Assembly: GCA_016839585.1 (NCBI GenBank)
Contig: JAEOTZ010000042.1
Location: forward strand, 3,859-67,858
Direction: 5' to 3'
DNA length: 64,000 bases
DNA from: Promethearchaeota archaeon
GTDB lineage: Archaea > Asgardarchaeota > Lokiarchaeia > Sigyniarchaeales > SOKP01
The first letter of the stretch is position 1; each line of letters opens with the position of its first letter. A program made the translations under genes and the position numbers. Shown here one piece after another: positions 1,477-63,464 of this stretch. Under the pieces are notes generated by a model. That model saw only the letters and a program-made list of their open reading frames with translations, was not told the DNA's origin and made no database searches.

Positions 1477-1878
1477 TTATTTCCAAATTACTAAAATACT
1501 TCCCGCAATTAAAAATGCAATAAGATAAACGATATATTCTAAAAGAAATAGTTTCATACCTCTATCGTTAAAATTCGACTGATTTATACCTATAGTTGCG
1601 ACAAATCCAATCCAAAGCAATAAACTGAGTAATAAAGCGGGACCAATCTCTGATAATCCTATTAAGATCATAACAACATCAATTACAAGTACTGTAATAA
1701 AACTTAATGGAATCATAATTATTGTTTCTTTTATAATTTTAGATTTGGGCTCACCTTCTTTACCAACTAATTTAAGCCAGAGATTTCCGAATGCAGAAGG
1801 AAAATACCAAAAAAAATGTATGGCAAAATAAATCAGAGCGACAATAGTAACTGCTAACCAATTAATTTCAATAGCCAT
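1477..1878 (-). CDS. DUF1761-like small integral membrane protein, copy A
   Basis: The ORF has 4 predicted TM segments. The N-terminus MAIEINWLAV..YFAIHFFWYFP..FGNLWLKLVGKE looks like the DUF1761 family. It is paralogous to 2673..3074. I preferred the ATG at 1878 over the TTG at 1890. Confidence 0.6.
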   Translation of the reverse strand: MAIEINWLAVTIVALIYFAIHFFWYFPSAFGNLWLKLVGKEGEPKSKIIKETIIMIPLSFITVLVIDVVMILIGLSEIGPALLLSLLLWIGFVATIGINQSNFNDRGMKLFLLEYIVYLIAFLIAGSILVIWK

Positions 1879-1985
1879 TTTAAACCACAATTTATCATTT
1901 TAATATATTTTAATAGGAATATAATTAAGCAATATTTATTTCTTATTTATTTAAATTATAACTAAAATACCTAAGTGAACTCTAA

Positions 1986-2459
1986 GTGAAAGATAAATTT
2001 AATTTAGTAGAAAAAAAAATCAAGGAATTTTCCCTGTCAAATTCTAGAGGCGAAACTAGAAATATCCGTGAATTTGAGGGTGAAAAAAATGTAGTGATTG
2101 TGCTATTCAGGAGTAAAAGTTGACCCTATGCTAAGGCTCATTCAGAAAAATTAGGAAATGATTATGAAAAATTTAGAGAACTTAATGCTGAACTATATGC
2201 AATCTTACCAGATGACCTTGAAAATGCGAAAATTTTTGAATCGAATTTTGCAAAAGAGTATGCTATATTTTATGATGATAAAAAAAAGGTAAATAAAATG
2301 TTAAAGCAAGAAGTAAAGCCTTTAAAATTGGGGAGAATGCCAGCGCTCCTTATTATAGATAAACAAGGGATTATAAGATATGCATATTATAGTGATTCTA
2401 TGGCTGATATCCCGGAGAATGAAGATTTATTTGAAGTGCTTGAGAGCTTGAATAATTAA
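1986..2459 (+). CDS. Predicted selenoprotein: PRXL2/SelU-like thioredoxin-fold redoxin (AhpC/TSA superfamily), copy A; codon 46 TGA (2121..2123) read as Sec
   Basis: GTG start at 1986, directly after an in-frame TAA. Translation: KDKFNLVEKKIKEFSLSNSRGETRNIREFEGEKNVVIVLFRSKS-U-PYAKAHSEKL...GRMPALLIIDKQGIIRYAYYSDSMADIPENEDLFEVLESLNN. It is conserved with copy B on both sides of the TGA. The TGA falls where this fold has its redox Cys (strand, then C/U-x-x-C, then helix). A conserved hairpin follows the stop. Confidence 0.65.
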
Positions 2460-2462
2460 AAC

Positions 2463-2533
2463 GATTTGGTATGAATAAAATAGAATAAATTTTTGAATTT
2501 TATTCATAAAAGTTAGCCACACTTGACCAAATC
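2463..2533 (+). promoter_or_regulatory. SECIS-like 3'-UTR hairpin, copy A
   Basis: Starts 4 nt after the stop. Lower stem 2463-2470/2526-2533 (8 bp), upper stem 2471-2481/2497-2507 (11 bp), 15-nt apical loop, and an 18-nt 3'-side bulge (2508-2525). The bulge contains AAAGTTAGCCACACT, which is identical in copy B. Confidence 0.55.
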
Positions 2534-2672
2534 ATATTTATAATTTCATGAAAAGATTTGTCCACATCTTATAAGAGTATTATAAAATAACTAGAGTTCA
2601 ATTAAGAAAATCTTATATGTTTTCGAACCTTAACACTTAAAATTAATTAAAAAAAAAATTGAAATTTTTAAT

Positions 2673-3074
2673 TTATTTCCAGACTACCAAAATACTTCCA
2701 GCAACCAAAAATCCAATAAGATAAAAGATATATTCCAATAGAAACAGTTTTAAACCTCTATCATTAAAATTAGTTTGATTTAGTCCTATCGTGGCTACAA
2801 AACCTATCCAAAGTAATAAATTTAGCAACAGTGCAGGACCAATCTCGGTTATACCTGCTAAAATCATCACTACATCTATAATTAATACGGTAATGAAACT
2901 TGTTGGAATCATTATAATTGTATCTCTTATAATCTTTGATTTAGGTTCGCTTTCTTTTCCTACTAATTTTAACCATAAATTACCGAATGCGAATGGAAAA
3001 TACCAAAAAAAATGTATTGCAAAATATATTAATGCGACTACAATAACTGCTATCCAATTAATTTCAAAAGCCAT
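2673..3074 (-). CDS. DUF1761-like small integral membrane protein, copy B
   Basis: Paralogue of 1477..1878, near-collinear with high identity by eye. I preferred the ATG at 3074 over the GTG at 3080. Confidence 0.6.
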   Translation of the reverse strand: MAFEINWIAVIVVALIYFAIHFFWYFPFAFGNLWLKLVGKESEPKSKIIRDTIIMIPTSFITVLIIDVVMILAGITEIGPALLLNLLLWIGFVATIGLNQTNFNDRGLKLFLLEYIFYLIGFLVAGSILVVWK

Positions 3075-3191
3075 TTCCACACCAAAAAATAAATTTTTAT
3101 TTTAAATTTATAATTTTTAAGGATTATATAATTAAGCTGTATTTATTTCTTCTTTATTTAAAATATAAATAAAAATTAAAATGAAGTCAAA

Positions 3192-3668
3192 ATGAAAGAT
3201 AAATTTAATTTAGTAGGCACTAAAATCTATGAGTTTAGTTTACCAAATTCTAGAGGTGAAACGATCAACATTAGAGATTTCGAAAACAAAAAAAATGTAA
3301 TAATTGTATTATTTAGAGATATCAATTGACCTTTTTGTCGATGGCATGCTGCTAGATTAAGAAGAGACCTTGAAAAATTTGAAAAATTGGATGGATTTTT
3401 GTATCCAATTTTAGTTGATAATGAAAAAAATGCTAAAAAAATGGAACAGAAATATGCAAAAAAGTACGCTGTCTTTTATGATGAATCAAAAAAAGTTGCT
3501 ACGCTGTTAAAACAAGAAAAAAGGTGGATTAAACTTGGTCGTATGCCGGGATTATTAGTAATTGACAAGAAAGGGATCATTCAATACGCCTATTATGGGA
3601 AAAGTATGCATGATATCCCAGAAAACAATGAAATATTGCAAGTTCTTGAAAAAATAAATAAAAAATAA
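3192..3668 (+). CDS. Predicted selenoprotein: PRXL2/SelU-like thioredoxin-fold redoxin, copy B; codon 46 TGA (3327..3329) read as Sec within a U-P-F-C motif
   Basis: The ATG at 3192 is in frame with track ORF 3387..3668. Translation: MKDKFNLVGTKIYEFSLPNSRGETINIRDFENKKNVIIVLFRDIN-U-PFCRWHAARLRRDLEKFEKLDGF..., which resembles the R-x-G-C-x-x-CR..A..L motif of PRXL2/SelU-type redoxins. The TGA is at the same codon as in copy A, and a conserved hairpin follows the stop. Confidence 0.75.
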
Positions 3669-3669
3669 T

Positions 3670-3738
3670 GATTTGGTAAGAATAAAATAAAAAAAAATGA
3701 GATTTTATTCTTTAAAGTTAGCCACACTTTACCAAATC
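3670..3738 (+). promoter_or_regulatory. SECIS-like 3'-UTR hairpin, copy B
   Basis: Starts 2 nt after the stop. Lower stem 3670-3679/3729-3738 (10 bp, perfect), upper stem 3680-3688/3702-3710 (9 bp, perfect), 13-nt A-rich loop, and an 18-nt 3' bulge (3711-3728) with the same AAAGTTAGCCACACT core as copy A. The stem sequences differ between copies but pairing is kept. Confidence 0.6.
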
Positions 3739-37049: not shown

Positions 37050-38537
37050 ATGAGTAAGTTTGACTTTAGACCCTCGGGAGTCATGCCAGCAATGGTAACA
37101 CCATTTAATAAAGATGAATCGATAAACGAAGACCAATTAAGAAATTTAGTTAATCATCTTATTGAACAAGGGGTTACAGGATTAGTCCCTGTCGGTACTA
37201 CCGGAGAATTTGTAAATATGACTTTTGAGGAACGTATAAAAGTAATTGAAATTGTAGTGGATGAAACAAATGGTAGAGTTCCGGTTATAGCAGGAACAGG
37301 AGAGACAGGAACTAAGTTAGTAATTGATGCTACTAAGGCCGCAACTGATATTGGTGCTGATGCAGTTTTAATAGTTACACCGTATTATTTAAAGCCAAAG
37401 GCAAAAGGGTTATATGATCATTACTTTACAATTACTGAAAAAACAGACATCCCTATAGTACTATATAATATCCCTGCTTGTACGGGCGTAGAATTGCCTT
37501 GGACTGTTGTGGAAGATCTCGTAGATATCGAAAATATTGTTGCTATTAAAGATTCTAGTGGTGATTATAAATACTTTTCAGCATTATTGGAAAAAGTAAG
37601 TGATAAGATTTCAGTCCTTATTGGATGGGATGAAAATGTTCTAGGAGCTTTAGCTGGAGGTGCTGCTGGCTGTATCTTAGGTTCTGCAAATGTGTTCCCT
37701 AAAATTTGGCTCGAAATTTATAATCATGTAAAAAATAATCGTCTAGAAGAAGCTCAAGTACTTCAAAAGAAGGTCCAAAAAATAGCAAGACTTTTAATAA
37801 ACTCAGGAGCATTAGGAGTTAAATCTTGTTTAAATATAATGAAAGTACCGGTTGGAAAAACTAGACAGCCCATTGTTATAGGAGACGCTCTTTCTTATGA
37901 AATAAAAGATGAATTAAGAGTTGAGCTTGAGAAATTAGGATTGATAGAAAAAATAGAAATCCAATTTGAATTAGGAGAAAAAACACTAACAAGTCGTTTT
38001 TATGCTGTTGGAATTACACCGAGGAAAATCATAAATTTCAAGTTAAAAGTCGGGGAATCTTTAGTAGGAAATCGCGTTGAACTTGCACATATTGATCTTT
38101 TAATTGGTGAAAAAGATGGACCTGTTGGACAAGCTTACGCTCAAGCTTTAACTAGTCCTGAAGAAGGACGTGAAGGACTTCAGGTCATACTTGAGCCTAA
38201 TATGCAAGTAAAACCACCCACAATCATGATTCCTACAGTTCGTCCGGTCTCTCTACGTCACGCAAGTTTAACTTATGGGCCTGCTCAAGCAGCAATAGCT
38301 AAAGCAGTGATGCAATGTGTAGAAGATGGAATTCTTCCAAAAGAATTAGCTGATGACATTGTTTTAATTGTAAATGTTTTTGTTCATCCAAGTGCGAGTG
38401 CAAGAAAAAGAATCTTCATTAACAATTATAAGGCAACTCGTAATGCGATTCGAAAAGCAATGGAAGGCTTACCAACTGTAGAAGATGGTATTGAAAATGC
38501 TGAAAGTGCCAGACATCCATTTAGAAACGATCCTTAA
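37050..38537 (+). CDS. Fusion protein: DapA/DHDPS-family class I (pyruvate-dependent) aldolase plus formaldehyde-activating enzyme (Fae) domain
   Basis: Residues 1-~300 show GTTGE, YNIP and the Schiff-base Lys context AIKDSSG. Residues ~330-495 read VGESLVGNRVELAHIDLLIG...YGPAQAAIAKAV..DGILP..ADD...VNVFVHP.A....I..NY.ATR.AI..A...HPF, which is collinear with Fae. Confidence 0.8.
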   Translation: MSKFDFRPSGVMPAMVTPFNKDESINEDQLRNLVNHLIEQGVTGLVPVGTTGEFVNMTFEERIKVIEIVVDETNGRVPVIAGTGETGTKLVIDATKAATDIGADAVLIVTPYYLKPKAKGLYDHYFTITEKTDIPIVLYNIPACTGVELPWTVVEDLVDIENIVAIKDSSGDYKYFSALLEKVSDKISVLIGWDENVLGALAGGAAGCILGSANVFPKIWLEIYNHVKNNRLEEAQVLQKKVQKIARLLINSGALGVKSCLNIMKVPVGKTRQPIVIGDALSYEIKDELRVELEKLGLIEKIEIQFELGEKTLTSRFYAVGITPRKIINFKLKVGESLVGNRVELAHIDLLIGEKDGPVGQAYAQALTSPEEGREGLQVILEPNMQVKPPTIMIPTVRPVSLRHASLTYGPAQAAIAKAVMQCVEDGILPKELADDIVLIVNVFVHPSASARKRIFINNYKATRNAIRKAMEGLPTVEDGIENAESARHPFRNDP

Positions 38538-38726
38538 AAAGTGAGTACCTTTTTTTCATCTTTTTATATTTTATTAATTTAAATCTTTTAAAATATTAAA
38601 TTAGTAAACTCTTTTTATAGAAATCTAATACATTATAAAGCGTATATTGATAATTTCAAGAATTTATTTATAATTAATATTAATAGTAAATTTAAAAATA
38701 ATTGAATAATAGAGCTGAACTATAAA

Positions 38727-39209
38727 ATGACACAGGTAATCGATTTGGAAGTAGGAAATAAAGCACCTGAATTTACACTCCCAGATAAAGATAATAAAGA
38801 AGTATCTTTAAGAGACTTTAAAGGAAAATATGTTATACTTTATTTTTACCCGAAAGATAATACGCCAGCATGCACAACTGAGGCTATTGGTTTTACAGGA
38901 ATTTTACCAGCATTACAAAAATTAGATGCTGTTGTTATTGGAATTAGTCCTGATACACCTGAATCTCATGCGAAATTCATTGAAAAGAAAAATTTGAATG
39001 TAATTCTCTTAAGTGATGTGGATAAAAAAGTAATTAAAAAATATGGTAAATGGGGAAAGAAAAAATTTAGGGGGAAAGAGTATATAGGGGTTATTCGAAG
39101 TACTTTTTTAATAGATCCAGATGGAAAGATTGCACACATTTGGCCTAAGGTTTCTGTAAAAGGGCATCCAGAAGATGTTGAAAGAGTATTAAAAGAATTA
39201 ATAAAATAA
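38727..39209 (+). CDS. bcp: Peroxiredoxin, Bcp type (thiol peroxidase)
   Basis: 160 aa. It has FYPKDNTPACTTEA peroxidatic Cys context and typical Bcp length. Confidence 0.85.
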   Translation: MTQVIDLEVGNKAPEFTLPDKDNKEVSLRDFKGKYVILYFYPKDNTPACTTEAIGFTGILPALQKLDAVVIGISPDTPESHAKFIEKKNLNVILLSDVDKKVIKKYGKWGKKKFRGKEYIGVIRSTFLIDPDGKIAHIWPKVSVKGHPEDVERVLKELIK

Positions 39210-44727: not shown

Positions 44728-45972
44728 ATGCCGAAAGGACAAATTGAAAAAATTGAATTAATAAGTAAGTTCTTAGATAAAGCCAAAGTGATAAACTTTG
44801 ATAAATTAAATACAGTTGATGATATAATCAAATTACCAATTTCAACTTTTAATTTCTTGAGTGATGCTGATGTAGAATTAATTTATGATTTATTCGAAAT
44901 TAGTAGTATAGGACAATTTTCATCTTTGGATTATTTACAACCATTCAAAATTTTATATAAAGACAAAAAAACTAAAAGAAAAATTGAGCATATATTACAA
45001 ACAGATTTAGAAATCGAAGATAAGGTAAAAAAAGCAGTTGCTATAAGCAAAATTATATACCAAATAAAAGAAGAATCAATCTCCTTTTTAACAAAAGAGC
45101 AAAAAGTTATTGTTGTTGGTTTAAGTAATGCGGGAAAAACAACAATATTGAAAAAATTTGGTGGACAAATTGGTATAAAAGATCTAGCTAAATTAAGTCC
45201 AACAAAAGGAGTGGAACGTCATGAAATAATAACTTCAGATTTAGTTTTAATAGTTTGGGATTTTGGTGGTCAGCAAGAATACAGAAAAATGTATCTTCAT
45301 GAACCTGATAAATATTTTTTAAAAGTTGATTTAATAATGTATGTCATAGACCTTCAAGATCCAGAAAAATATGAAGAAAGTATAAAATATTTTAAAGAAT
45401 TAATTGATATTATCGAAAAACTTGAAGAAAATCCTTACATCTTAATTTTTATACATAAATTTGATCCCGATATAAAAGATAATCCGGAAATATTGCTTAA
45501 TATTGAAGTTGTAAAGGATTTAATTAAAAATGTTTTCAGGGATAAAAAGAAATATGATTATGACATATATTTAAGTTCTATATATTCAATATTAGCAAAA
45601 GAACCAAAATTTTCAAGATATCTTAAAGATACTATGGTAAAAACTGCAACATTAACAGATCATAAATTAGAAGGAATGGCATCAATTTTAGAGTCATCCT
45701 TAAATGGAATTATTAGATTATCAGAAACAGTAATGACACAATTTAATGAAATTGATAATCGAATAAGAATACTAGAAGGTGAAGAGCCAATCTCAAATAG
45801 GGCACCTTCTTCAATACCCTCTCCAGAATATTCTTCCATACCTCCATTTGCTTCACATTCAAGTACCAATATTGGAAAAAAAGTCATACCTAATAGAATT
45901 AAAAATGTAAGAGTTGCTGTTCTTGATGAACTAAAAGAATTACTTGAAAAAAGAAATAAAAAATTACTATAA
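44728..45972 (+). CDS. Arf/Sar-like small GTPase domain protein with N- and C-terminal extensions
   Basis: 414 aa. G1 is GLSNAGKT (residues ~131-138), G3 is WDFGGQ (the Arf-family WDxGGQ form), and G4 is the variant HKFD. It carries a ~125-aa N-terminal and a ~120-aa C-terminal extension. Confidence 0.75.
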   Translation: MPKGQIEKIELISKFLDKAKVINFDKLNTVDDIIKLPISTFNFLSDADVELIYDLFEISSIGQFSSLDYLQPFKILYKDKKTKRKIEHILQTDLEIEDKVKKAVAISKIIYQIKEESISFLTKEQKVIVVGLSNAGKTTILKKFGGQIGIKDLAKLSPTKGVERHEIITSDLVLIVWDFGGQQEYRKMYLHEPDKYFLKVDLIMYVIDLQDPEKYEESIKYFKELIDIIEKLEENPYILIFIHKFDPDIKDNPEILLNIEVVKDLIKNVFRDKKKYDYDIYLSSIYSILAKEPKFSRYLKDTMVKTATLTDHKLEGMASILESSLNGIIRLSETVMTQFNEIDNRIRILEGEEPISNRAPSSIPSPEYSSIPPFASHSSTNIGKKVIPNRIKNVRVAVLDELKELLEKRNKKLL

Positions 45973-53122: not shown

Positions 53123-56100
53123 TTGAGCGAAAAAAATAAAGTGGGGTCTGTAATGATTGTTGGAGCAGGGATAGGGGGATGCCAAGCGGCATTAGACTTA
53201 GCAGATTCTGGTATCAAGGTCTATCTTGTTGACAAGGAACCTTCCATCGGAGGAGTTATGGCCCAATTAGATAAAACATTCCCAACAAATGACTGTTCGA
53301 TGTGCATTTTAGCTCCAAAACTCGTAGCTGTAGATAGACATCCTAATATTGAATTGATTACCTATGCAGATGTCCTAAATCTGGAGGGTGAAGCGGGTAA
53401 TTTTAATGCAACGATTAATAAAAAAACAAGATATATTCATGAAGATAAATGTACGGGTTGTGGGGATTGCGTTCAGGAATGCCCTGTTCAAGTTCCTGAT
53501 GAATTCAATCAGAAATTGAATAATAGAAAGGCAATATATCTTCAATTTCCCCAAGCTGTTCCTTTTAAAGTATTAATTGATAAGCAAGGGATTCCTCCTT
53601 GTAAGGATGCGTGTCCTGCTCACGTAAATGCCCAAGGATATATTGCTTTAATTTCTAAAAAAAGTTATCAAGAAGCCTTGAATCTAATTAGAGAAAGATG
53701 TCCCCTACCCTCTGTTATAGGTCGCATTTGTCCTCGATTCTGTGAAATGGTGTGTAATAGAGCTGAATTAGATACTCCTATTAATATCTGCGGTTTAAAA
53801 AGATTTGTAGCTGATTATGTAAGGGATAATCTTGAGGAAGAGATCATATTCTTAGAAGATCAAAAGGAAGAAAAGGTTGCCATTGTTGGCTCAGGTCCAG
53901 CTGGACTTACTGTTGCATATCATCTTGCAAGACGTGGATATTCCGTAACTATTTTTGAAAAAGAAGCTTTTGCTGGTGGAATGCTAAGACTAGGGATTCC
54001 AGATTACAGGTTACCCCCAGATATTTTAGAAAGTGATATTGAACATATTAAGAAATTTGGGGTTGAGATAAAAACTAATACACCAATAGGTTCTGATTTA
54101 ACTTTTGAAGATTTGAAAAAACAGGGTTTTAAAGCTATATTTATAGCTATAGGTCTTCATAATAGTCGTAAAATGGATTTTGAATGTAAAGATATTGAAG
54201 ATGTAATATATGGTGTTGAGTTTCTAAAAGAATTAAATTTATCCAGAAATGTACCTAATCTTAAAGATAAAATTGTAGGAGTAGTGGGCGGAGGAGATGT
54301 TGCAATGGATGCAGCACGATCATCAATAAGATTAGGCGCTAAAAAAGTCATAATTATCTATAGACGATCTGAACAAGAAATGCCCGCTTCAAGGGAAGAA
54401 ATAGAAAGAGCAAGAGAAGAGGGTATTGAATTCAAATTTTTAACAGTTCCTACCAGAGATGCCAGTGGTAAGGGGGGTAAACTTTCTGAAATTGAATGTG
54501 TTGAAATGAAACTTGGTGAACCGGATGAATCTGGAAGGCGAAGACCTATTTCAATTGAAGGTTCTGAATTCAAAATGAAGATAGATACTTTAATCCTTTC
54601 TATAGGACAAGAACCAGATTGCTCTCTAATAGAATCTGCTTCTAAAAAGAAATTAAATATTAATAAATGGGGTTACATTGAATCAGATAAAATATCTTTT
54701 GAAACTAATATCCCTGGCGTGTTTGCTGGTGGAGAGATCGTTGAGGGCGCTGGTTCTGCTATAGAAGCGATAGCAACAGGAAATAAAGCTGCTATAGTGA
54801 TAGAGAAATATCTAAAAGGAGAAGATATTTCCGAATTAAAAGAAACCATTCCAGATTATAAAGTAACGGATATAATTACTAGTGCTGGTATTCAAGATAT
54901 TGAGAGTTTTTCATGTCAAGATAGGAATGAGTTCACAATATGTCTACCAGAGGAACGTATATACAATTTTAATGAAGTCGCTAATGGTATGGATGAAGAA
55001 TCTTCTATTGAAGAAGCATTACGTTGTCTCAATTGCGGATCTTGCTGTGAGTGCTTTGAATGCGTGAGAGCATGTCAAGCTGACGCTGTTGATCATAGCT
55101 TAACTGATGAGACTATTTCTATCAATATTGGGGCTGTGATATTAGCTCTTGGCTCTGATGAATATAGACCAAAAATAGGGAATGTTTATGGATATGGTGA
55201 ATATCCAAATGTTATAACAAGTATAGAATTAGAACGTATACTCAATGCATCTGGTCCATTTAATGGAGAAGTCATTCGTCTTTCAGATAACACACATCCT
55301 AAAAAAATAGCATTTCTGCAATGTATTGGTTCTCGAGATAAAAAAATAGGTCATGAATATTGTTCTTCAATGTGTTGTATGTATACTACAAAAGAGGCTG
55401 TTATAGCTAAAGAGCATTTGAGTACTCTTGAACCCACTATTTTTAGCATGGATATAAGAGCATACGGAAAAGATTTTGACAAATATATTGAACGAGCTAA
55501 AGAAGATTATGGTGTAAGATATATTAGAAGTAGAATAGCTGCTATTAAAGAAATACCGGAATCTAATGATTTAAAAATTAGGTATGAGACTGAAGAAGGA
55601 AAAATTATCGAAGAAATTTTTAACATGGTTGTTCTGTCCGTAGGATTACAACCTAATCCAAATACTGCAGCATTTGCAAAAAAATTAAATATTGAATTAA
55701 ATGAATATGGTTTTTGTAAGACTACCAATTTTAATCCAATTGAGACTTCGCGACCAGGAATATATGTATGCGGAACATTTAAAGAGCCTAAGGATATTCC
55801 AGAAACCGTTATTGAAGCTAGTGCGGCTGCTGGAGCTGTTAATGTTCTATTATCTGATGTTAGAAATACATTAATTGCTGAAAAGAAAGATTATGAAGAA
55901 ATTGACATCAGTGGAGAGCCACCTCGAATTGGAGTCTTTATTTGCCATTGTGGAATTAATATTGGAGGTGTTGTTGATGTTCCTGAAGTAGTTGAATACG
56001 CAAGCAAATTACCAGATGTAGTTTATTCTGAAAGAAATTTATATACTTGCTCAGCTGATACACAAACGATTATTAAAGAAAAAATAAAAGAAAATCATTT

Positions 56101-58069
56101 AAATAGAGTAATCGTTGCTTCTTGTACGCCTAGAACACATGAACCATTATTCCAAGCAACTATTAGAGAAGCAGGTTTAAACAAATATCTTTTTGATTTA
56201 GCAAATATTAGGGATCAATGCTCCTGGGTACATAAGCATGAACCAGAGGAAGCTACAATGAAAGCTAAAGATTTAGTTAGAATGTCTGTTGCTAAAGCTA
56301 GAAATTTAGTTCCTTTAAAAGAACAAAAAGTAGAAGTAATTCATAAAGGAATAGTTATTGGAGGTGGCGTAGCAGGAATGACTGCTGCTTTAAATTTAGC
56401 AGATCAAGGGTATGATATATATCTAATAGAAAAAAATGATAAATTGGGGGGTATCGCAAATTCTATTTATCAAACTTTGGAAAACAATGATGTTCAAAAA
56501 TTAATTGGAAATTTAATAGAAAAAGTAAACAATCATAAATTAATTACCGTTTTTCTCGAAGCTAATATTAATTCTGTAAGTGGATATATAGGAAATTTTA
56601 CCACAGATATAACCTATGGTAAAAAAAAAGAAGAGAAGAAATTTGATCATGGGATTATTATTGTAGCTACAGGAGCAAAAGAATATATACCTAAGGATGA
56701 TGAATTTCTATTTAATCAAGATAAAAGAATTACAACCCAGTCAAACCTAGAAGAAATTCTTTTTACAAACGAAAAAAAGATAAGAGAATTGAAATCAATT
56801 GTAATGATCCAATGTATTGGATCTAGAAACGAAGAACATCCTTATTGCAGCAGGATGTGCTGCGCAGAAGCTATAAAAAATGCGTTAAAAGCAAAAGAGA
56901 TTAACCCAGATATCAATATTATAATTTTATTTCGTGATATTAGGACTTATGGCTTTAAGGAAAAATACTATAATTTAGCCAGAGAAAAAGGAATAATTTT
57001 CATCAGGTTTGATGAAAAAAAGCCACCCGAAGTTGTTAAAGAGGATAATCAATTACAAGTCTTACTAAATAAGCCAGATGTAGGAGAACTTAAAATTAAT
57101 TCTGATTTAATAGTATTAAGTGCAGGAATTGTACCTCCTGAAGGAAATTCAGAGTTAGCTAAAATACTAAAAGTCCCTCTTAATGAGGACAATTTCTTTT
57201 TAGAAGCTCATGTTAAATTGAGACCATCTGATTTTGCAACAGATGGAATCTTTTTATGTGGAACTGCACGAGGAGCGGCCAATATAAGCGAAAGTATAGC
57301 TCAAGCGAATTCTGCCGCTGCTAGAGCAATGACAATATTATCAAAAGAGATTTTGGAAACAGAAGGCATAACTTCCTATGTTAATGAAGATAAATGCATA
57401 GGTTGTGGTCGATGTGCTGAAGTTTGTCCTTATAATGCTATTGAATTGGTTGAGACTACAAAACAAATGGGTTTATATAGTAATGACATAAAAAAAGCTC
57501 AAGTAATTAAAGCTGTTTGTAAAGGCTGTGGAACATGCTTCGCAGAATGTCCTACCTCTGCAATTTCGATGAGTCATTTTGGAAATGCGCAGATTAAGCC
57601 AATGATTGAGGAAGCTGTGAAATCTGATGAGATCGGTTGGGAACCACGAATAATTGCGTTTCTCTGTAATTGGTGTTCTTATGCTGGCGCTGATTTAGCT
57701 GGTGTAAGTCGATATCAGTATCCTCCAAATGTAAGGGTTATAAGAGTAATGTGCTCGGGAGGTATGTCTAAAAGTTTCATTTTACAAGCATTTTTAGAGG
57801 GTGCAGACGGAATATTTATAGCAGGGTGTCATCTAGGGGATTGCCATTACATTAGTGGAAATGAAAATGCCTATCTCCGCTTGGAAAATCTTAAAGAATT
57901 ATTAAAAATGATTGGAATTGAAGAAGAAAGAATTCAAATTAATCAGATTTCCGCGAGTGAGGGAAAACAATTCTCAGAACTTATAACTGAATTTACAGAT
58001 AAGATCAAAGCATTAGGAGAATCGAAGATGCCTAAGAAAATAAGTAAAGCGAAAATTGAATCTAGCTAG
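53123..58069 (+). CDS. Giant multidomain flavo-Fe-S protein: HdrA core with an inserted GltD/NfnB-like NAD(P)H module, a second HdrA module, and a C-terminal MvhD domain (HdrL-like)
   Basis: 1648 aa with a TTG start preceded by AGAGGGA. Residues 1-156 are an HdrA FAD domain (GAGIGGC..DKTFPTNDCSMC). Residues ~157-566 are GltD-like (CPLPSVIGRICPRFCE; IVGSGPAGL; GGGDVAMDAA). The rest of the HdrA core runs from ~630 to 910. Residues ~930-1500 are a second HdrA with its N-terminal Cys domain (ICHCGINIGG). Residues 1505-1648 are MvhD (FLCNWCSYAGADLAG..GCHLGDCHY). Confidence 0.8.
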   Translation: MSEKNKVGSVMIVGAGIGGCQAALDLADSGIKVYLVDKEPSIGGVMAQLDKTFPTNDCSMCILAPKLVAVDRHPNIELITYADVLNLEGEAGNFNATINKKTRYIHEDKCTGCGDCVQECPVQVPDEFNQKLNNRKAIYLQFPQAVPFKVLIDKQGIPPCKDACPAHVNAQGYIALISKKSYQEALNLIRERCPLPSVIGRICPRFCEMVCNRAELDTPINICGLKRFVADYVRDNLEEEIIFLEDQKEEKVAIVGSGPAGLTVAYHLARRGYSVTIFEKEAFAGGMLRLGIPDYRLPPDILESDIEHIKKFGVEIKTNTPIGSDLTFEDLKKQGFKAIFIAIGLHNSRKMDFECKDIEDVIYGVEFLKELNLSRNVPNLKDKIVGVVGGGDVAMDAARSSIRLGAKKVIIIYRRSEQEMPASREEIERAREEGIEFKFLTVPTRDASGKGGKLSEIECVEMKLGEPDESGRRRPISIEGSEFKMKIDTLILSIGQEPDCSLIESASKKKLNINKWGYIESDKISFETNIPGVFAGGEIVEGAGSAIEAIATGNKAAIVIEKYLKGEDISELKETIPDYKVTDIITSAGIQDIESFSCQDRNEFTICLPEERIYNFNEVANGMDEESSIEEALRCLNCGSCCECFECVRACQADAVDHSLTDETISINIGAVILALGSDEYRPKIGNVYGYGEYPNVITSIELERILNASGPFNGEVIRLSDNTHPKKIAFLQCIGSRDKKIGHEYCSSMCCMYTTKEAVIAKEHLSTLEPTIFSMDIRAYGKDFDKYIERAKEDYGVRYIRSRIAAIKEIPESNDLKIRYETEEGKIIEEIFNMVVLSVGLQPNPNTAAFAKKLNIELNEYGFCKTTNFNPIETSRPGIYVCGTFKEPKDIPETVIEASAAAGAVNVLLSDVRNTLIAEKKDYEEIDISGEPPRIGVFICHCGINIGGVVDVPEVVEYASKLPDVVYSERNLYTCSADTQTIIKEKIKENHLNRVIVASCTPRTHEPLFQATIREAGLNKYLFDLANIRDQCSWVHKHEPEEATMKAKDLVRMSVAKARNLVPLKEQKVEVIHKGIVIGGGVAGMTAALNLADQGYDIYLIEKNDKLGGIANSIYQTLENNDVQKLIGNLIEKVNNHKLITVFLEANINSVSGYIGNFTTDITYGKKKEEKKFDHGIIIVATGAKEYIPKDDEFLFNQDKRITTQSNLEEILFTNEKKIRELKSIVMIQCIGSRNEEHPYCSRMCCAEAIKNALKAKEINPDINIIILFRDIRTYGFKEKYYNLAREKGIIFIRFDEKKPPEVVKEDNQLQVLLNKPDVGELKINSDLIVLSAGIVPPEGNSELAKILKVPLNEDNFFLEAHVKLRPSDFATDGIFLCGTARGAANISESIAQANSAAARAMTILSKEILETEGITSYVNEDKCIGCGRCAEVCPYNAIELVETTKQMGLYSNDIKKAQVIKAVCKGCGTCFAECPTSAISMSHFGNAQIKPMIEEAVKSDEIGWEPRIIAFLCNWCSYAGADLAGVSRYQYPPNVRVIRVMCSGGMSKSFILQAFLEGADGIFIAGCHLGDCHYISGNENAYLRLENLKELLKMIGIEEERIQINQISASEGKQFSELITEFTDKIKALGESKMPKKISKAKIESS

Positions 58070-58091: not shown

Positions 58092-58931
58092 TTAATATTC
58101 ATTAGGTATTTTTTTAAGCTCTGCCAGAGAGAACACTGGGCCATCAATACAGACGAATTTATTACCGATATTACATCTTCCACATTTACCAACCCCGCAC
58201 TTCATTCTCATCTCTAATGAATTTAAAATTTGCTCATCCTTCCAACCTAGATTTACCAATTCAGCCACGGCAGTTCTAATCATTATGGGCGGCCCACAGA
58301 CTACTGCTATAGCGTTATCAGGAGATGGAGCAACCTTCTTAACTACTGCTGCAACAAACCCTACTTCGCGAGTCCATCCTTCCTCTTCGCGATCAATCGT
58401 TAGGACTACGTTAATATCATCTCTTTTTTCCCATTCTTCAAGGATATCTCGATATAATACTTCACCAGAATCACGGTTACCATAAATCACAGTAATATCT
58501 TTATAATTGTTTCTATATCTTTCATCTAAAAAGTATACGACTAGAGATCTTAAGGTTGAAAATGCAAATCCGCCCCCGATGATCACGATATTCTTGCCTT
58601 TCATTTCTTCAATTGGCCAGCCATTACCTAAAGGACCTCTTACCCCTACAGTATCTCCAATTTCAACATTGTGAAATCCTGTAGTTACTGTTCCCATCTT
58701 CTTGATCGTAAATTTAATAGACCCTTCTTCAGTTGGAGATGAGGCAATACCTATTGGGCATTCTCCTTTTCCAATTAGACTAATTTCTGCAAATTGTCCT
58801 GGATTGTAATCAAAACTTTTCAAATCTTCTTCTTTCTTAAATACTAATTCGAGAGTTTTTATATCGTTTACTTTATTTTCTGAAACAACAGTTTTAATTT
58901 TCGTAAGCATGGGAATATACGGATTAGGCAC
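58092..58931 (-). CDS. FAD/NAD(P)-binding oxidoreductase with C-terminal [2Fe-2S] (FlxA / HydG / AsrB / PyrK-like)
   Basis: 279 aa. It has an FNR-like fold (GQFAEISL; RGPLGNGW; IIGGGFAFS) and C-terminal CGVGKCGRCNIG....C. Confidence 0.75.
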   Translation of the reverse strand: MPNPYIPMLTKIKTVVSENKVNDIKTLELVFKKEEDLKSFDYNPGQFAEISLIGKGECPIGIASSPTEEGSIKFTIKKMGTVTTGFHNVEIGDTVGVRGPLGNGWPIEEMKGKNIVIIGGGFAFSTLRSLVVYFLDERYRNNYKDITVIYGNRDSGEVLYRDILEEWEKRDDINVVLTIDREEEGWTREVGFVAAVVKKVAPSPDNAIAVVCGPPIMIRTAVAELVNLGWKDEQILNSLEMRMKCGVGKCGRCNIGNKFVCIDGPVFSLAELKKIPNEY

Positions 58932-59982
58932 TTACTTTCTCCTCCCTTTTTGGTTCAATTTTCTTAATTTTTTCAATTATTGTTCTAAGGTCATTATTAA
59001 CGGGACATAATTGAACACATCGTCCACATCCAACACACCCTAACATGCCGTAATTCTCAGGATAATAACAAAATTTATGTAAAATTCTATTTCTAACCCT
59101 TTGTATACAACTATTACGTGGATTATGACCACTTGTATGTAACGTATAAAGGCAAGATTGGCACGTATCCCATATTCTAATTCTTCTTCCACGATTCTTG
59201 TTTGGAACATTTTCATCAATTACATCAAAACAGGTACATGTTGGACATAGGAATGAACATGTTCCACATCCTATACAAGTTTCACTTACTTCTTTCCATA
59301 TTGGATGATCAAAATTTGGATCTAAAATTTTGTCGATATCCTTTAAATCTAATTTTGTTGTAATTGATTCTTCTGCCTGTTTTTTTAATTCTTGAGCCTT
59401 TTCTATATCCATCTCTTTAGCATCAGCAAGCCACGAAAGCTTTTTAATTAAATCTTTACCTTTATCACTAATTCCCTCAACAAGATATTCATTTTGTAAG
59501 TCAACTAAAAATACATCCATATAATCCTTTTGAAATGGATTTCCTTCTACTGATGTACAGAAACAAGTACTTTTAGGAGTATTGCAACCAATTCCTATTA
59601 AAATTGTATTTTTCCTTCTATTTATAATAATTTCGTCTTTGAAATCTCCTTGAGAGAAAAAGTTTACTAACAAGACAAAACTATGAGCGTCACAGGGTCT
59701 TATCCCAAAAATTATATTTTGTTCATTTAAATTTTTAGGTTCTTCAAGCTCTATCTCATTATCATTAATTTTATATTCAAAAAGAATATCTTTCTCCGGA
59801 AATAGTATTTCTTTCGGTGGAACTTTAGAATTTAGATAGTCCAGCACTATTTCTTCGGGATTTGTTATTTTTCTAAAAACTATATTTCTCTTTTCTTTAA
59901 TTGGAGCAAAAAAATTATAATCTTTTGTTAAATCATTATATAACTTTATGATTTGATCTTTTTTTAGAATTTTGTATTCCAT
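58924..59982 (-). CDS. Fe-S subunit (FlxB / HydB / AsrA-like)
   Basis: 352 aa. It has GIRPCDAHS, CIGCGTCSFLCPTCTCFD and CVGCGRCVQLCP. It overlaps the downstream gene by 8 nt. Confidence 0.7.
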   Translation of the reverse strand: MEYKILKKDQIIKLYNDLTKDYNFFAPIKEKRNIVFRKITNPEEIVLDYLNSKVPPKEILFPEKDILFEYKINDNEIELEEPKNLNEQNIIFGIRPCDAHSFVLLVNFFSQGDFKDEIIINRRKNTILIGIGCNTPKSTCFCTSVEGNPFQKDYMDVFLVDLQNEYLVEGISDKGKDLIKKLSWLADAKEMDIEKAQELKKQAEESITTKLDLKDIDKILDPNFDHPIWKEVSETCIGCGTCSFLCPTCTCFDVIDENVPNKNRGRRIRIWDTCQSCLYTLHTSGHNPRNSCIQRVRNRILHKFCYYPENYGMLGCVGCGRCVQLCPVNNDLRTIIEKIKKIEPKREEKVSA

Positions 59983-59998
59983 TTTTCAAGTCCCCTTT

Positions 59999-61009
59999 TT
60001 AATCTTCCTCCATCATAAATTCTTCTTTATCCTCTATATCATAAGCCATCATAGGAGGCAAGCTTCTTGGATCAATACCGGTTGTAAAATTAAACCTTTC
60101 TTTTGCGATTTTTTCTAAAGATCTGTTTATTAAATTCAAATCAATTCCCATCGGGCACGCACTGCTGCAAGCTCCACAACCTACACATCGACCTGCCATA
60201 TGCATTGCGCGAACTAAATGAAATACAAAAATATCAGAATAACCCGTTGTTTTTCCAAACCAAACAGGTTGGTTTTGATCTACAAAACATAGATTACAAT
60301 AGCACATAGGACATGCTTCTCTGCAAGCATAACATCGAGTACAAGTCTCTAAAAGACTTTTTATATATTCCCATTTTTCTTCAGTAGTTTTTGAATCAAA
60401 TTCAGCAATATCAGAAAAATCATCTTCAATAACAGGATTTTCTAAACATTCACCAACACATATATCTTCTAAAAATGGAGGTGATTTAACTTGGCATACT
60501 TTACATAATTCATTCATATATTCATTAAAAGGAAATACTTTTTCGAAGTCCCTGCCTTTTACTATGATATTATCACCAGATACTGAGATATCAAAGATTT
60601 CTCTTTCTCCTATTTCATCTTCAATTTTCTTCCTATTTATAATTCCATTACAAGGAATTCCAATTATTTTTATGCTTTCAAGATCGAGTTGATGCTCTAC
60701 CGATAAATGAATTAAAGCCCTGCCGACACAACCTTTTGATACAATACCTACTTTCAATTTTTGACCTTCTTCATTCATAAGTGTTGGTATTCGAGGGACC
60801 AAATATTTGGCCAAATTTATATAACATAAATTATTCCAAATTAATTTATCTACATCCTCTGCTTTATCTATCACAATTGGTGATGAACTTAAAGGAACAG
60901 TACCTTCTGTGTATCCAATAATAACATCAACTTGTTTTTCTTCAAGTAGTTTTCCAGCTAAATCTCTTATTAATTGCTCAATTTCTTTATTTTCATTTTC
61001 AATTACCAT
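59999..61009 (-). CDS. Fe-S protein (FlxC / FrhB-FdhB-like)
   Basis: About 336 aa from the ATG at 61009 (MVIENENKE...). It has CTRCYACREACPMCYC and CVGCGACSSACP. It starts 5 nt after the mvhD-like stop. Confidence 0.6.
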   Translation of the reverse strand: MVIENENKEIEQLIRDLAGKLLEEKQVDVIIGYTEGTVPLSSSPIVIDKAEDVDKLIWNNLCYINLAKYLVPRIPTLMNEEGQKLKVGIVSKGCVGRALIHLSVEHQLDLESIKIIGIPCNGIINRKKIEDEIGEREIFDISVSGDNIIVKGRDFEKVFPFNEYMNELCKVCQVKSPPFLEDICVGECLENPVIEDDFSDIAEFDSKTTEEKWEYIKSLLETCTRCYACREACPMCYCNLCFVDQNQPVWFGKTTGYSDIFVFHLVRAMHMAGRCVGCGACSSACPMGIDLNLINRSLEKIAKERFNFTTGIDPRSLPPMMAYDIEDKEEFMMEED

Positions 61010-61014
61010 AAAAA

Positions 61015-61470
61015 TCACCACTCCGTTTCAAATTTTTTGTTTGGTCCAAGTTTCTTTACATTATTTGTTACTTTTTTAATTAAAGTCGCAAATCTATCAC
61101 CTTCTGATGCAGAAGACCACATGAAAGTAACTCTATCAGGATCTATCCCGAAAAGTTTTAATAAATCTTGTAAAATCGCAAAACGTCTTCTTGCAACTAA
61201 ATTTCCACTAATGTAATGGCAATCACCTGGATGACATCCCGAGACAACAACACCATCCCAGCCTCTTAATAAACTTTTAATTATGAAAAAAGGATTTACT
61301 CTTCCTGAACATGGAACCCTTACTATTCTAATATTTGAGGGATATTGGATTCTACTAACACCTGCTAAATCCGCTCCAGCATAAGAACACCAATTACAGA
61401 GAAATGCAATTATTTTTGGCTCCCATTCTTTTTTATCTTCTGATTGTGTTTTTACTTTACTCGTTAAAGT
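61015..61470 (-). CDS. mvhD: MvhD/FlxD homologue ([2Fe-2S] electron-transfer subunit); start undefined, with no ATG/GTG/TTG ahead of the conserved domain
   Basis: Hand translation of the minus strand gives TLTSKVKTQSEDKKEWEPKIIAFLCNWCSYAGADLAGVSRIQYPSNIRIVRVPCSGRVNPFFIIKSLLRGWDGVVVSGCHPGDCHYISGNLVARRRF...ETEW*. The frame is bounded upstream by TGA (61473..61471). The ORF track does not list it. Confidence 0.75.
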   Translation of the reverse strand, partial: TLTSKVKTQSEDKKEWEPKIIAFLCNWCSYAGADLAGVSRIQYPSNIRIVRVPCSGRVNPFFIIKSLLRGWDGVVVSGCHPGDCHYISGNLVARRRFAILQDLLKLFGIDPDRVTFMWSSASEGDRFATLIKKVTNNVKKLGPNKKFETEW

Positions 61471-63464
61471 TCACCCCCCATTATTATTGAAAATATCTGT
61501 TCGCCAGTAAAGCCAATGATATCTATTGCTGAACATCTACAATTACCAGAACAAGCACCACACCCTTTACATAGAGCTTCATTTATTTTAGCTACTGTAC
61601 CAAACCATTTATCCTCAACAAGCTCAATAGCCCCATAAGCACAATTTTCAACGCACATACCACAACCAATACAACGTTCAGGGCGAACGACAGCAAAAAA
61701 TGGTTCTATCTCAACTTCACCCTGAGACATTAACACAGCTGCGCTTGAAGCGGCTCCTTTAGCCTGAGCAACAGCATCAGGAATATCTTTTGGACCTTGC
61801 GCAACACCAGCTATAAAGATACCCTCTGTTAAAGTGTCTACTGGTCGCAATTTTGGATGGGCTTCTAAAAAAAATCCATCTGCTGATCTTTGTATTCTTA
61901 ATAGAGAAGTTATTATATCTGCATCTGCTCGAGGCTCTAAACCACAAGATAAAACAAACAAATTTACTGTTAATTCAATTGGTTGTTGAAGTAAAGTATC
62001 TTCAGCTCTTATGATAATATTGTGATCATCATCTTCGATTACCTCTGCTATTCTTCCTCTCATAAAATTGATTCCGTAATTTTGCCCTGCAGATTCGTAA
62101 AATTCTTCATAACCTTTTCCAAAAGCTCGAATATCCATATAAAAAATATAAATATCTGCATCTGGATGCTTTTCCTTATATTGCCTTGCTTGCTTGGTTG
62201 CATACATACAGCAAACTCTTGAACAATATTGATTTCCTCCTTCTCTGAAATTTCTACTTCCCACACATTGAAGAAAGGCAATGCTATGGGGTTCTTTAAG
62301 ATCCGAAGGTCTAACAGGCTTTCCTATAACTGGTCCAAAAGAACTTAATAAACGCTCCATTTGAAGTCCAGTAATAACATTAGGGTATCTCCCATAGCCA
62401 TATTGTTTGAGTTCAGTAGGATCATATAAATCCCATCCTGTAGCAACGATTATTGTGCCTACCTTAATTTTCAAATATTCTGGTTTATCATCAAAATTAA
62501 TCGCTTCAGGTTCACATACATCTATTCTTGCACATATTCCGCATTTAATACAATTGTCCATATCAATCGTATATTGTCCAGGTATAGCTTGAGGGAATGG
62601 AATGTAAATTGCTTTTCTTGTGGCTAATCCGAGTTCAAATTCGTTTCCAACGACAACAGGACAATAATCAACACATACTCCGCAACCAGTACATTTCTCT
62701 TGATCTACGTAATGTGGTTTTTTTAAAATAGTAACTTCGAAATTTCCTATAAAACCAGAGACTTCTACTACTTCGGAATAGGTTAAAAGTTCAATATTTT
62801 TCTCACGTGAAATCTCAGACATTTTGGGGGTAAGTATACAACTCGAACAATCCATAGTTGGGAACGTTTTATCAAGTTGAGCCATATGACCACCTATTGT
62901 AGGCGTTTTTTCAATTAAATATACTTTATAACCCTCTGTAGCCAGGTCCAATGCAGCATTCATTCCTGCAACTCCTCCTCCTATTATTAAACAAGAGGGT
63001 TCTACTTTCACTTTCTGGACTTCTAGTGGTTTTAACTCCCTTGCTTTTGCTACAGCCATTCTAATATGGTCTTTAGCGATTTCATATGCTCCTTCTGGAT
63101 CTCTCATATGAACCCATGTTGAGTGTTCTCTAATATTTGCCATTTCAAATAAAAATTGGTTCAAACCAGCTTCTTTACAAGTGATTCTAAAAGTAGGTTC
63201 ATGCATCCTTGGAGAACATGCAGCAACAACAACTCTATTTACCAATCCCGCTTCAATATCTTCCTTTATAATCTTCTGCCCTACATCAGAACAAAAGAAT
63301 TTATATTCTTGTGCTACTTCTACGTTTGGAAGTGTTTTTGTATATTCTACCAAATCTGGAACTGAAACAACACCACCAATGTTGACACCGCAATGACATA
63401 TATAAACTCCAATTTTAGGTCTTTCATTACCAGTAACTTTTATTTCTTTTTTAGCTTCTGTCAT
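61464..63464 (-). CDS. hdrA: Heterodisulfide reductase subunit A (FAD, multiple Fe-S), Cys form
   Basis: 666 aa. It has an N-terminal Cys domain (ICHCGVNIGG), GGGVAGMNAA, DKTFPTMDCSSC, inserted and C-terminal ferredoxin motifs, and overall HdrA collinearity. Confidence 0.9.
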   Translation of the reverse strand: MTEAKKEIKVTGNERPKIGVYICHCGVNIGGVVSVPDLVEYTKTLPNVEVAQEYKFFCSDVGQKIIKEDIEAGLVNRVVVAACSPRMHEPTFRITCKEAGLNQFLFEMANIREHSTWVHMRDPEGAYEIAKDHIRMAVAKARELKPLEVQKVKVEPSCLIIGGGVAGMNAALDLATEGYKVYLIEKTPTIGGHMAQLDKTFPTMDCSSCILTPKMSEISREKNIELLTYSEVVEVSGFIGNFEVTILKKPHYVDQEKCTGCGVCVDYCPVVVGNEFELGLATRKAIYIPFPQAIPGQYTIDMDNCIKCGICARIDVCEPEAINFDDKPEYLKIKVGTIIVATGWDLYDPTELKQYGYGRYPNVITGLQMERLLSSFGPVIGKPVRPSDLKEPHSIAFLQCVGSRNFREGGNQYCSRVCCMYATKQARQYKEKHPDADIYIFYMDIRAFGKGYEEFYESAGQNYGINFMRGRIAEVIEDDDHNIIIRAEDTLLQQPIELTVNLFVLSCGLEPRADADIITSLLRIQRSADGFFLEAHPKLRPVDTLTEGIFIAGVAQGPKDIPDAVAQAKGAASSAAVLMSQGEVEIEPFFAVVRPERCIGCGMCVENCAYGAIELVEDKWFGTVAKINEALCKGCGACSGNCRCSAIDIIGFTGEQIFSIIMGGEL

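Follow-up and report, generated by a model that had tools for sequence, protein, structure and literature searches.

Peroxiredoxin-like (PrxL) selenoproteins, together with the selenocysteine (Sec) insertion sequence (SECIS) named lokiSECIS, have been described in Lokiarchaeota, where the lack of Cys outside the redox box was also remarked (Mariotti et al., 2016; PMC4989117). According to a later survey, Prx-like selenoproteins occur in 43% of Sec-using Asgard genomes (Huang, Xiao & Zhang, ISME J 2024; PMC11227280), and a 2026 review lists the family as 'Prx-like thiol:disulfide oxidoreductase, PF00578, UxxC/UxxU', predicted with high confidence. Bacterial and eukaryotic Prx-like UxxC selenoproteins are credited to Zhang and Gladyshev (2008), as cited by Mariotti et al. 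(2016) and the 2026 review. Here, we focus on two adjacent PrxL genes, copy A and copy B, in 64,000 nucleotides of a Promethearchaeota archaeon of the Lokiarchaeia (GCA_016839585.1, contig JAEOTZ010000042.1, positions 3,859 to 67,858; this whole stretch is called the window, and all coordinates refer to it). Both genes very probably encode Lokiarchaeal PrxL selenoproteins in which the UGA at codon 46 is decoded as Sec, directed by a structured RNA element in the 3′ untranslated region (3′ UTR).

Copy A (1986..2459, + strand) starts with a GTG at 1986 and comprises 157 codons before its TAA stop at 2457-2459, while copy B (3192..3668, + strand) runs from an ATG at 3192 through 158 codons to a TAA at 3666-3668. 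The sole in-frame stop inside each frame is the TGA of codon 46 (2121..2123 in copy A, 3327..3329 in copy B, both + strand). A sequence-only reading of this DNA had given the same coordinates, translations and TGA positions, and retranslation confirmed them without any further in-frame stop. The two proteins share 60% identity and differ in the redox box, which reads S-K-S-U-P-Y-A-K-A-H in copy A (type A) and D-I-N-U-P-F-C-R-W-H in copy B (type B). Copy B thus presents a U-x-x-C box, and copy A contains one Sec and zero Cys in the whole protein. Copies A and B are residue for residue identical to entries Lokiarchaeia_GCA_016839585_U_2 and _U_3, respectively, in the supplementary FASTA of Huang et al. 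(2024; PMC11227280). As the exact proteins stand in the 2024 catalog, the selenoprotein finding is already known and the prediction itself adds nothing new, except as a reminder that standard gene callers split PrxL genes or mistranslate them with genetic code 4. What is possibly new is the 3′ RNA element, which lacks the lokiSECIS core, and the conserved U-x-x-A subtype.

When translated through the TGA, both copies match AhpC-TSA (PF00578; E ~5e-20) over profile positions 1-123 of 124 (residues 8-132 of each protein; E 5e-20 for copy A, 7e-20 for copy B), and Redoxin (PF08534) is matched as well. These Pfam matches run end to end over the TGA, hence the domain spans it. PF13911 (AhpC-TSA_2) is absent from the Pfam matches of both copies at E <= 0.01. 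On this profile evidence, the family is that of the Prx-like thiol:disulfide oxidoreductases and not PRXL2/SelU, the label given by the sequence-only reading; PRXL2/SelU (PF13911) is likewise a thioredoxin-fold family with Sec/Cys redox motifs, but its profile finds no match here. The placement of U also had to be revised. U was thought to occupy the nucleophilic Cys position of AhpC/TSA/PRXL2 proteins, whereas alignment with the structure of a bacterioferritin comigratory protein (BCP; 3drn) puts U46 on the Thr of the motif T-x-x-C, with the peroxidatic position taken by the residue at +3. Against the CxxC thioredoxin-family structure 3hdc, U46 falls on the N-terminal Cys of C-P-Y-C. As judged from these alignments, U would thus be the attacking nucleophile of thioredoxin type, a placement that agrees with the published Prx-like definition. 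The U-P-F-C-R motif noticed in copy B is indeed a U-x-x-C redox box, but its assignment to the SelU/PRXL2 type does not stand.

True peroxiredoxins of the BCP/PrxQ type (3drn, 2cx3 and the window gene 38727-39209) share PF00578/PF08534 and the overall fold with PrxL. They carry a P-x-x-x-T/S-x-x-C active site, in which U stands in for Thr in PrxL, and this active site is absent from both copies: at the peroxidatic-equivalent position, copy B has Cys and copy A has Ala. With Ala at +3 and no Cys, neither an intramolecular selenenylsulfide nor the classical peroxiredoxin mechanism is possible for copy A. Bacterial and eukaryotic Prx-like oxidoreductases and their CxxC relatives (3hdc) share the thioredoxin fold and a C/U-P-x-C box after strand β-1 with U for the N-terminal Cys. 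A Cys or Sec at the second box position is found in copy B (U-P-F-C) but not in copy A (U-P-Y-A). The U-x-x-A/S/T box of copy A therefore lies outside the motifs listed for the PrxL family (UxxC and UxxU; 2026 review), yet the 2024 data set files the protein in this family. The window gene at 38727-39209 (+ strand) encodes a BCP/PrxQ-type peroxiredoxin of the ordinary Cys form (FYPKDNTPACTTE, T-P-A-C; AhpC-TSA E 6e-42). An in-frame TGA at 38703-38705 precedes its ATG by eight codons, but the surrounding sequence is intergenic and AT-rich, and this TGA was therefore rejected as a Sec codon.

Homologs were sought among 5.8 billion proteins, and a locus scan with one genome per GTDB species yielded 80 loci from Asgard lineages. 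Two cultured organisms are among them, Lokiarchaeum ossiferum and Promethearchaeum syntrophicum MK-D1, both with the TGA form. The column of codon 46 holds TGA in 78 of the 80 scanned loci; the exceptions are a frameshifted tandem copy (L009) and an Asp form (L077). We aligned the codons of 80 genes, that is, the 78 TGA-bearing loci and the two window copies. TGA stands at the aligned codon in 80/80, a consistency well outside what chance would give, and none of these genes has another in-frame stop. Differences per site at codon positions 1/2/3 amount to 0.28/0.16/0.53 upstream of the TGA and 0.30/0.18/0.52 downstream, and this equal, third-position-dominated divergence indicates that both halves evolve as coding sequence (CDS). 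The comparison of orthologs at the TGA column, suggested by the sequence-only reading as a check, thus bears out its claims that homology and selection extend to either side of the TGA and that the genes, with their intact frames and conserved redox box, are not pseudogenes. Genuine Cys-form homologs (P0065, P0074) are rare and show C-P-F-C at this column. Together with the 3′ element and the published entries, these results support the proposal of two paralogous thioredoxin-fold redoxins with a Sec-encoding TGA at the redox box.

The +3 residue of the box is Cys (TGT/TGC) in 63/80 genes and Ala, Ser or Thr in 17/80, and Cys outside the redox box is found in none of the 80. Two conserved subfamilies can be distinguished, type B with U-P-[FY]-C-R-[WAG]-H, to which copy B belongs, and type A with S-K-[SN]-U-P-Y-[A/S/T]-K-A-H, to which copy A belongs. 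By its sequence, copy A appears to define a conserved redoxin subtype with a lone Sec, U-x-x-A/S/T and zero Cys. In public protein sets the orthologs appear in two classes, either as C-terminal fragments of 89-106 aa on long Lokiarchaeota/Promethearchaeota contigs or as 'full-length' forms that come from short contigs and show W at codon 46, where the DNA reads TGA. Several of the W-form translations run past the true stop into the 3′ UTR, which marks them as code-4 mistranslations. Hence, the view that these genes were missed by ORF (open reading frame) calling holds for the automatic callers but not for the selenoprotein literature, in which they were cataloged in 2024.

Right after the stop codon of each copy lies an RNA element of ~70 nt that folds into a three-way junction. 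In copy A (2463..2533, + strand; fold z-score -4.35), helix I is formed by 2463-2469/2527-2533, helix II by 2473-2481/2497-2505 with the apical loop 2482-2496, and hairpin 2 by 2510-2513/2521-2524 with the loop UAGCCAC at 2514-2520. The element of copy B (3670..3738, + strand; fold z-score -3.83) consists of helix I (3670-3676/3732-3738), helix II (3680-3688/3702-3710, apical loop AAAAAAAAAUGAG) and hairpin 2 (3715-3718/3726-3729, loop UAGCCAC at 3719-3725). Helix I sets in 4-5 nt past the stop in the window, and in 11 orthologs a UGA stop stands at its base. In the consensus, drawn from 78-85 examples, helix I is GAUUUGG/CCAAAUC and junctions 1, 2 and 3 measure 3, 4 and 2 nt, respectively. 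Helix II is A/U-rich with 9 bp (GAAUAAAAU/AUUUUAUUC) and shows covariation at 9/9 pairs; its apical loop of 11-17 nt has an A-rich onset and ends in UGAG, UGAU or UUGA. Hairpin 2 has 4 bp and a UAGCCA[C/A/U] loop in 74/85 examples.

The element is the best-conserved segment of the duplicated cassette described below, with 85.5% identity between A and B compared to 62-70% for the CDS. Of the cells in a plain MAFFT alignment, 92.3% are paired, with double changes at 17/20 pairs; in the model-based alignment the values are 96.4% and compensatory changes at 19/20 pairs, while slid-register controls reach 35-58%. The covariance model built on the element (R1) finds two sites only in the window (copy A, 84.8 bits, E 4e-18; copy B, 89.4 bits, E 3e-19; the next match has E 0.09). 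In 534 kb of loci, all of its matches directly follow Sec-type PrxL ORFs or remnants of PrxL genes and none follows the Asp-type L077, so that the RNA structure is exclusive to TGA-containing genes and their remnants; it adjoins the stop codon in every Sec-type gene. Rfam gave no match to the element beyond chance, either at gathering or at E <= 10 thresholds, and the supplement of Huang et al. (2024; PMC11227280) holds no SECIS sequence with a match to UAGCCA. Two alternative architectures were discarded. A k-junction using junctions 1 and 3 is ruled out, as junction 3 is GA in only 6/85 elements and the flanking pairs covary in Watson-Crick fashion. Pairing of the loop AUGA-GAUUU with the 3′ AAAUC is ruled out by covariation of helix I (L026, L065, L068, L072), which favors the outer helix.

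If UGA46 were not a Sec codon, the two genes might be redoxin pseudogenes, each disabled by its own nonsense mutation. Automatic callers do report fragments only, and some relatives are truly decaying (the frameshifted type A L009; the C-terminal remnants L017 and L072), but the same TGA in 80/80 orthologs from many Asgard lineages, the missing further stops or frameshifts, the similar divergence on either side of the TGA, the conserved redox box and the dedicated 3′ RNA structure leave this explanation a negligible probability; the 80-gene codon alignment appears effectively to have refuted it already. A genome-wide reassignment of TGA to Trp (code 4) or Gly (code 25) would be suggested by the database homologs with W at codon 46 and by the AT-rich genome (30.8% GC in the window). 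The W residues, however, are code-4 artefacts on short contigs, some of them read past the true stop into the 3′ element, and in true homologs the column holds Cys instead of Trp or Gly. The window is tiled by long standard-code ORFs. TGA terminates 7/42 of its stop-to-stop segments of >= 200 codons and is the own stop codon of 11/78 PrxL orthologs, and genome-wide recoding was rejected on these grounds. TGA is thus a normal terminator here and the codon-46 TGAs are exceptions: no other long gene is interrupted, and no in-frame TGA was seen at conserved Trp/Gly columns of housekeeping genes in the window. Six candidates for in-frame TGAs joining two ORF pieces emerged from a scan of the window, four of which were discarded as antisense to, or overlapping, real genes; another is the intergenic TGA at 38703, ahead of the BCP gene. 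Reassignment is accordingly as improbable as pseudogenization. Slightly more room, though still very little, must be given to termination at UGA46 followed by reinitiation of a C-terminal protein, or to near-cognate read-through inserting Cys or Trp without Sec. An in-frame TTG does occur in copy B, 20 codons past the TGA, where the called ORF 3387-3668 starts, but the restart codon is not conserved (depending on the ortholog, 7 to 73 codons separate the TGA from the first ATG/GTG/TTG) and the restarted product would be without strand β-1 and the entire redox box. Furthermore, purifying selection acts on the first 45 codons just as it does on the remainder, and the 3′ element is exclusive to TGA-containing genes, with an apical hairpin closely resembling the FrhD lokiSECIS. 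All three explanations are thus very unlikely.

The role of the 3′ structure is a separate matter, and it might be an intrinsic terminator, an mRNA-stability element or a small RNA gene instead of a SECIS. This would fit the U-rich tracts that are frequent 3′ of the element, the missing Rfam family, and the lack of both the AUGA...GA core of lokiSECIS and the GAA_A bulge of euryarchaeal elements. A terminator, however, would not require a three-way junction whose UAGCCA loop is near-invariant and whose junction lengths are fixed across Asgard lineages, and the structure is present only after Sec-type PrxL genes and absent after the Asp-type L077. Its 9-bp helix and A-rich loop ending in UGAG match the FrhD lokiSECIS, and no bacterial-type CDS hairpin could act in its stead: over the 65 nt that follow either UGA, folding is no more stable than in shuffled sequence (z +0.76 and -0.26), and the two folds differ. 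We consider a function other than SECIS unlikely, if somewhat less so than termination at UGA46. Three points nevertheless weigh against Sec decoding of the two genes as a whole. The AUGA...GA quartet, by which the published lokiSECIS is defined, is missing from the 3′ element, and the SECIS function of this element is thus suggested by association and not by motif identity. Neither tRNA-Sec nor genes of the Sec machinery are found in the 64-kb window, so the presence of the machinery rests on the published survey of the metagenome-assembled genome (MAG) GCA_016839585. In that survey, the MAG also yields Sec-HdrA and Sec-FrhD, and the authors demanded at least three machinery genes including tRNA-Sec (PMC11227280). 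Finally, Sec incorporation into PrxL proteins is a prediction in every organism, and the literature itself calls the family never experimentally characterized.

From these observations we infer actual Sec insertion, a SECIS role of the RNA, and the substrates and catalytic cycle of the enzymes as follows. Copies A and B would be cytoplasmic thioredoxin-fold thiol/selenol:disulfide oxidoreductases. UGA46 would be decoded by machinery of archaeal/eukaryal type (tRNA-Sec, PSTK, SepSecS, SelD and EFSec), directed by the structured element in the 3′ UTR. Sec is predicted to take the N-terminal attacking position of the U-x-x-C box at the start of helix α-1. In copy B, the cycle would proceed via a selenenylsulfide between Sec46 and Cys49, while copy A would have to work as a lone-Sec enzyme, either via a mixed selenenylsulfide or via a selenenic acid resolved by an external thiol.

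The two genes are members of a duplicated cassette of ~1.2 kb, as seen in the cassette alignment, and each lies head to head with a gene for a DUF1761 membrane protein (1477..1890, - strand, E 2e-14, divergent from copy A; 2673..3080, - strand, E 1.4e-15, divergent from copy B). The divergent intergenic region of cassette A (1891..1985) contains an A/T-rich TATA-like stretch (TTTATTTAAATTATAA). It shares 78% identity with its counterpart in cassette B (3081-3191), including the common A/T-rich block TATTTATTTCTT-TTTATTTAAA-TATAA, and judging by this sequence the region is probably a shared bidirectional archaeal promoter. A divergent DUF1761 neighbor ~100-116 nt upstream is present in 18/80 loci only, those closest to the window. 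This rules out DUF1761 as an obligate PrxL partner, and no functional link is drawn.

In Borrarchaeum, a U-x-x-U gene (GLA-U-GH-U-RKH, two TGAs) is followed in tandem by a U-x-x-C gene (L060/L063:2200-2895 and 3001-3561), with one 3′ element apiece. Remnants comprising C-terminal pieces of ~45 aa occur at L017:3700-3951 and, in Lokiarchaeum ossiferum, at L072:5480-5722, and a frameshifted type A copy at L009:2600-3000. These decayed copies keep a well-scoring 3′ element, which suggests that the turnover of PrxL paralogs is ongoing. In the Helarchaeota homolog L077 (885-1400), Asp replaces Sec (LMDLFCQ) and R1 has no match, while the 3′ flank GGATTTACCAAAAAGATAATCCAAATT resembles both arms of helix I with the interior deleted; on this resemblance, the flank is possibly a decayed SECIS remaining after Sec loss. 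Typical Asgard PrxL genes with the element also stand on contigs labeled 'Nanopelagicaceae bacterium' (L061, DATKTW010000112.1), 'Odinarchaeota' (L080) and 'Thorarchaeota' (L019), and at least the actinobacterial label of L061 looks like that of a mis-binned contig.

Elsewhere in the window, a Cys-type HdrA (VYICHCGVNIGG, MDCSSCILTP) is encoded at 61464-63464 (- strand), followed by an MvhD/FlpD-like frame at ~61015-61470 (- strand; ...KIIAFLCNWCSYAGADLAG...SGCHPGDCHY...) that opens just within the HdrA end. Both were rejected as selenoproteins, being Cys forms. The MvhD/FlpD-like frame has no in-frame ATG, GTG or TTG ahead of codon position 61122. This points to a non-canonical start or to translational coupling, unless the assembly is wrong close to the G6 run at ~61474-61479. 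The HdrA-like cluster (58092-63464) is adjoined by the gene of a 1648-aa multidomain oxidoreductase (53123-58069, + strand) with three Pyr_redox_2/FAD modules, 4Fe-4S domains and a C-terminal FlpD (MvhD) domain. A 495-aa ORF at 37050-38537 (+ strand) fuses a DHDPS-family domain (residues 8-293) to a formaldehyde-activating enzyme (Fae) domain (334-491). Furthermore, a 414-aa protein at 44728-45972 (+ strand) contains a small-GTPase domain of the Arf/Gtr1-RagA/Roc type; such a typical Asgard eukaryotic-signature protein is consistent with the Lokiarchaeal origin of the window.

Compared to the Asgard PrxL of the 2016 and 2024 papers, the window genes have the same AhpC/TSA fold, Sec first in the box, no outside Cys and a structured 3′ UTR abutting the stop. 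PrxL.1 and PrxL.2 of the 2016 Loki genome, however, belong to another subfamily of ~175 aa with an RG[AS]W-U-x-x-C/U box, with which the KDKF-type subfamily studied here was grouped only in 2024. Thus, the published description of lokiSECIS was not derived from KDKF-type genes. In bacterial Prx-like selenoproteins the SECIS lies within the CDS just past the UGA, as a stable hairpin 16-37 nt downstream in bacterial SECIS, whereas the signal of the window genes is in the 3′ UTR and copies A and B have no such CDS hairpin. The euryarchaeal SECIS (eaSECIS) is characterized by a GAA_A bulge, which is missing from the PrxL element, where helix II is A/U-rich and its basal GA pairs with UC.

The PrxL element resembles lokiSECIS, an eSECIS-like element of type I, which has in common with it the 3′ UTR site at the stop, a 9-bp helix and a loop (of about 11 nt in the published element) that begins with A and ends in (U)GAG. 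In the PrxL element, and apparently in lokiSECIS too, an outer helix encloses this hairpin and a small second hairpin with the loop U-N-G-C-M comes after it. LokiSECIS has AUGA immediately before the helix and GA/AA immediately after it, the non-Watson-Crick quartet of its kink-turn core, whereas PrxL has 3-nt and 4-nt junctions of variable sequence. At the base of PrxL helix II, GA/UC gives way to GG/CC or AA/UU by covariation, and a sheared G.A tandem is thereby excluded. As a positive control we used 12 Sec-FrhD loci: the strict lokiSECIS pattern (AUGA / 9 bp / loop / 9 bp / GA-or-AA) was found in 8/12 FrhD flanks (loop AAAAAAAUGAG) versus 0/78 PrxL flanks. The 2024 paper, in which roughly 15% of the genes are left without an eSECIS-like hit, gives GA...[G/A]A as the pattern demanded in its search for Asgard SECIS (PMC11227280); a relaxed GA...[GA]A scan hits 13/80 PrxL flanks, where the G belongs to helix I. 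R1 aligns the FrhD elements at the right position, although weakly (E 0.08-0.4), and needs two insertions to do so, 7 nt (...AUGA) at junction 1 and 2 nt at junction 2; a comparable gap separates PrxL from FrhD in the MAFFT alignment.

In the FrhD loci L083-L092, ~20-95 nt past the stop, the lokiSECIS hairpin lies inside an outer helix AUGUGUU/AACACAU and is followed by the hairpin AUGG-UNGCM-CCAU. Nine closely related FrhD elements could be aligned with 93.8% of cells paired; helix II covaries strongly, helix I shows two double changes, and hairpin 2 is invariant in the nine sequences and therefore shows no covariation. This alignment is compatible with the FrhD lokiSECIS being a three-way junction like the PrxL element, an architecture unmentioned in the text of the 2016, 2024 and 2026 papers. 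Tentatively, the KDKF-type PrxL element might be a derivative of the lokiSECIS scaffold that is used as a SECIS without the AUGA...GA kink-turn core, although we regard this as somewhat less probable than its opposite. If true, Asgard Sec insertion would have no strict need for the quartet, and recognition would instead depend on the apical loop together with the second hairpin, neither of which is placed in a three-way junction by the text of the three papers. The Asgard SECIS serves as an evolutionary bridge from archaeal to eukaryotic Sec decoding owing to its AUGA...GA core, the one feature that ties Asgard to eukaryotic SECIS elements. A large and widespread PrxL subfamily that keeps the scaffold without this core would hence be a natural experiment on the features read by the still-unknown Asgard SECIS-binding factor.

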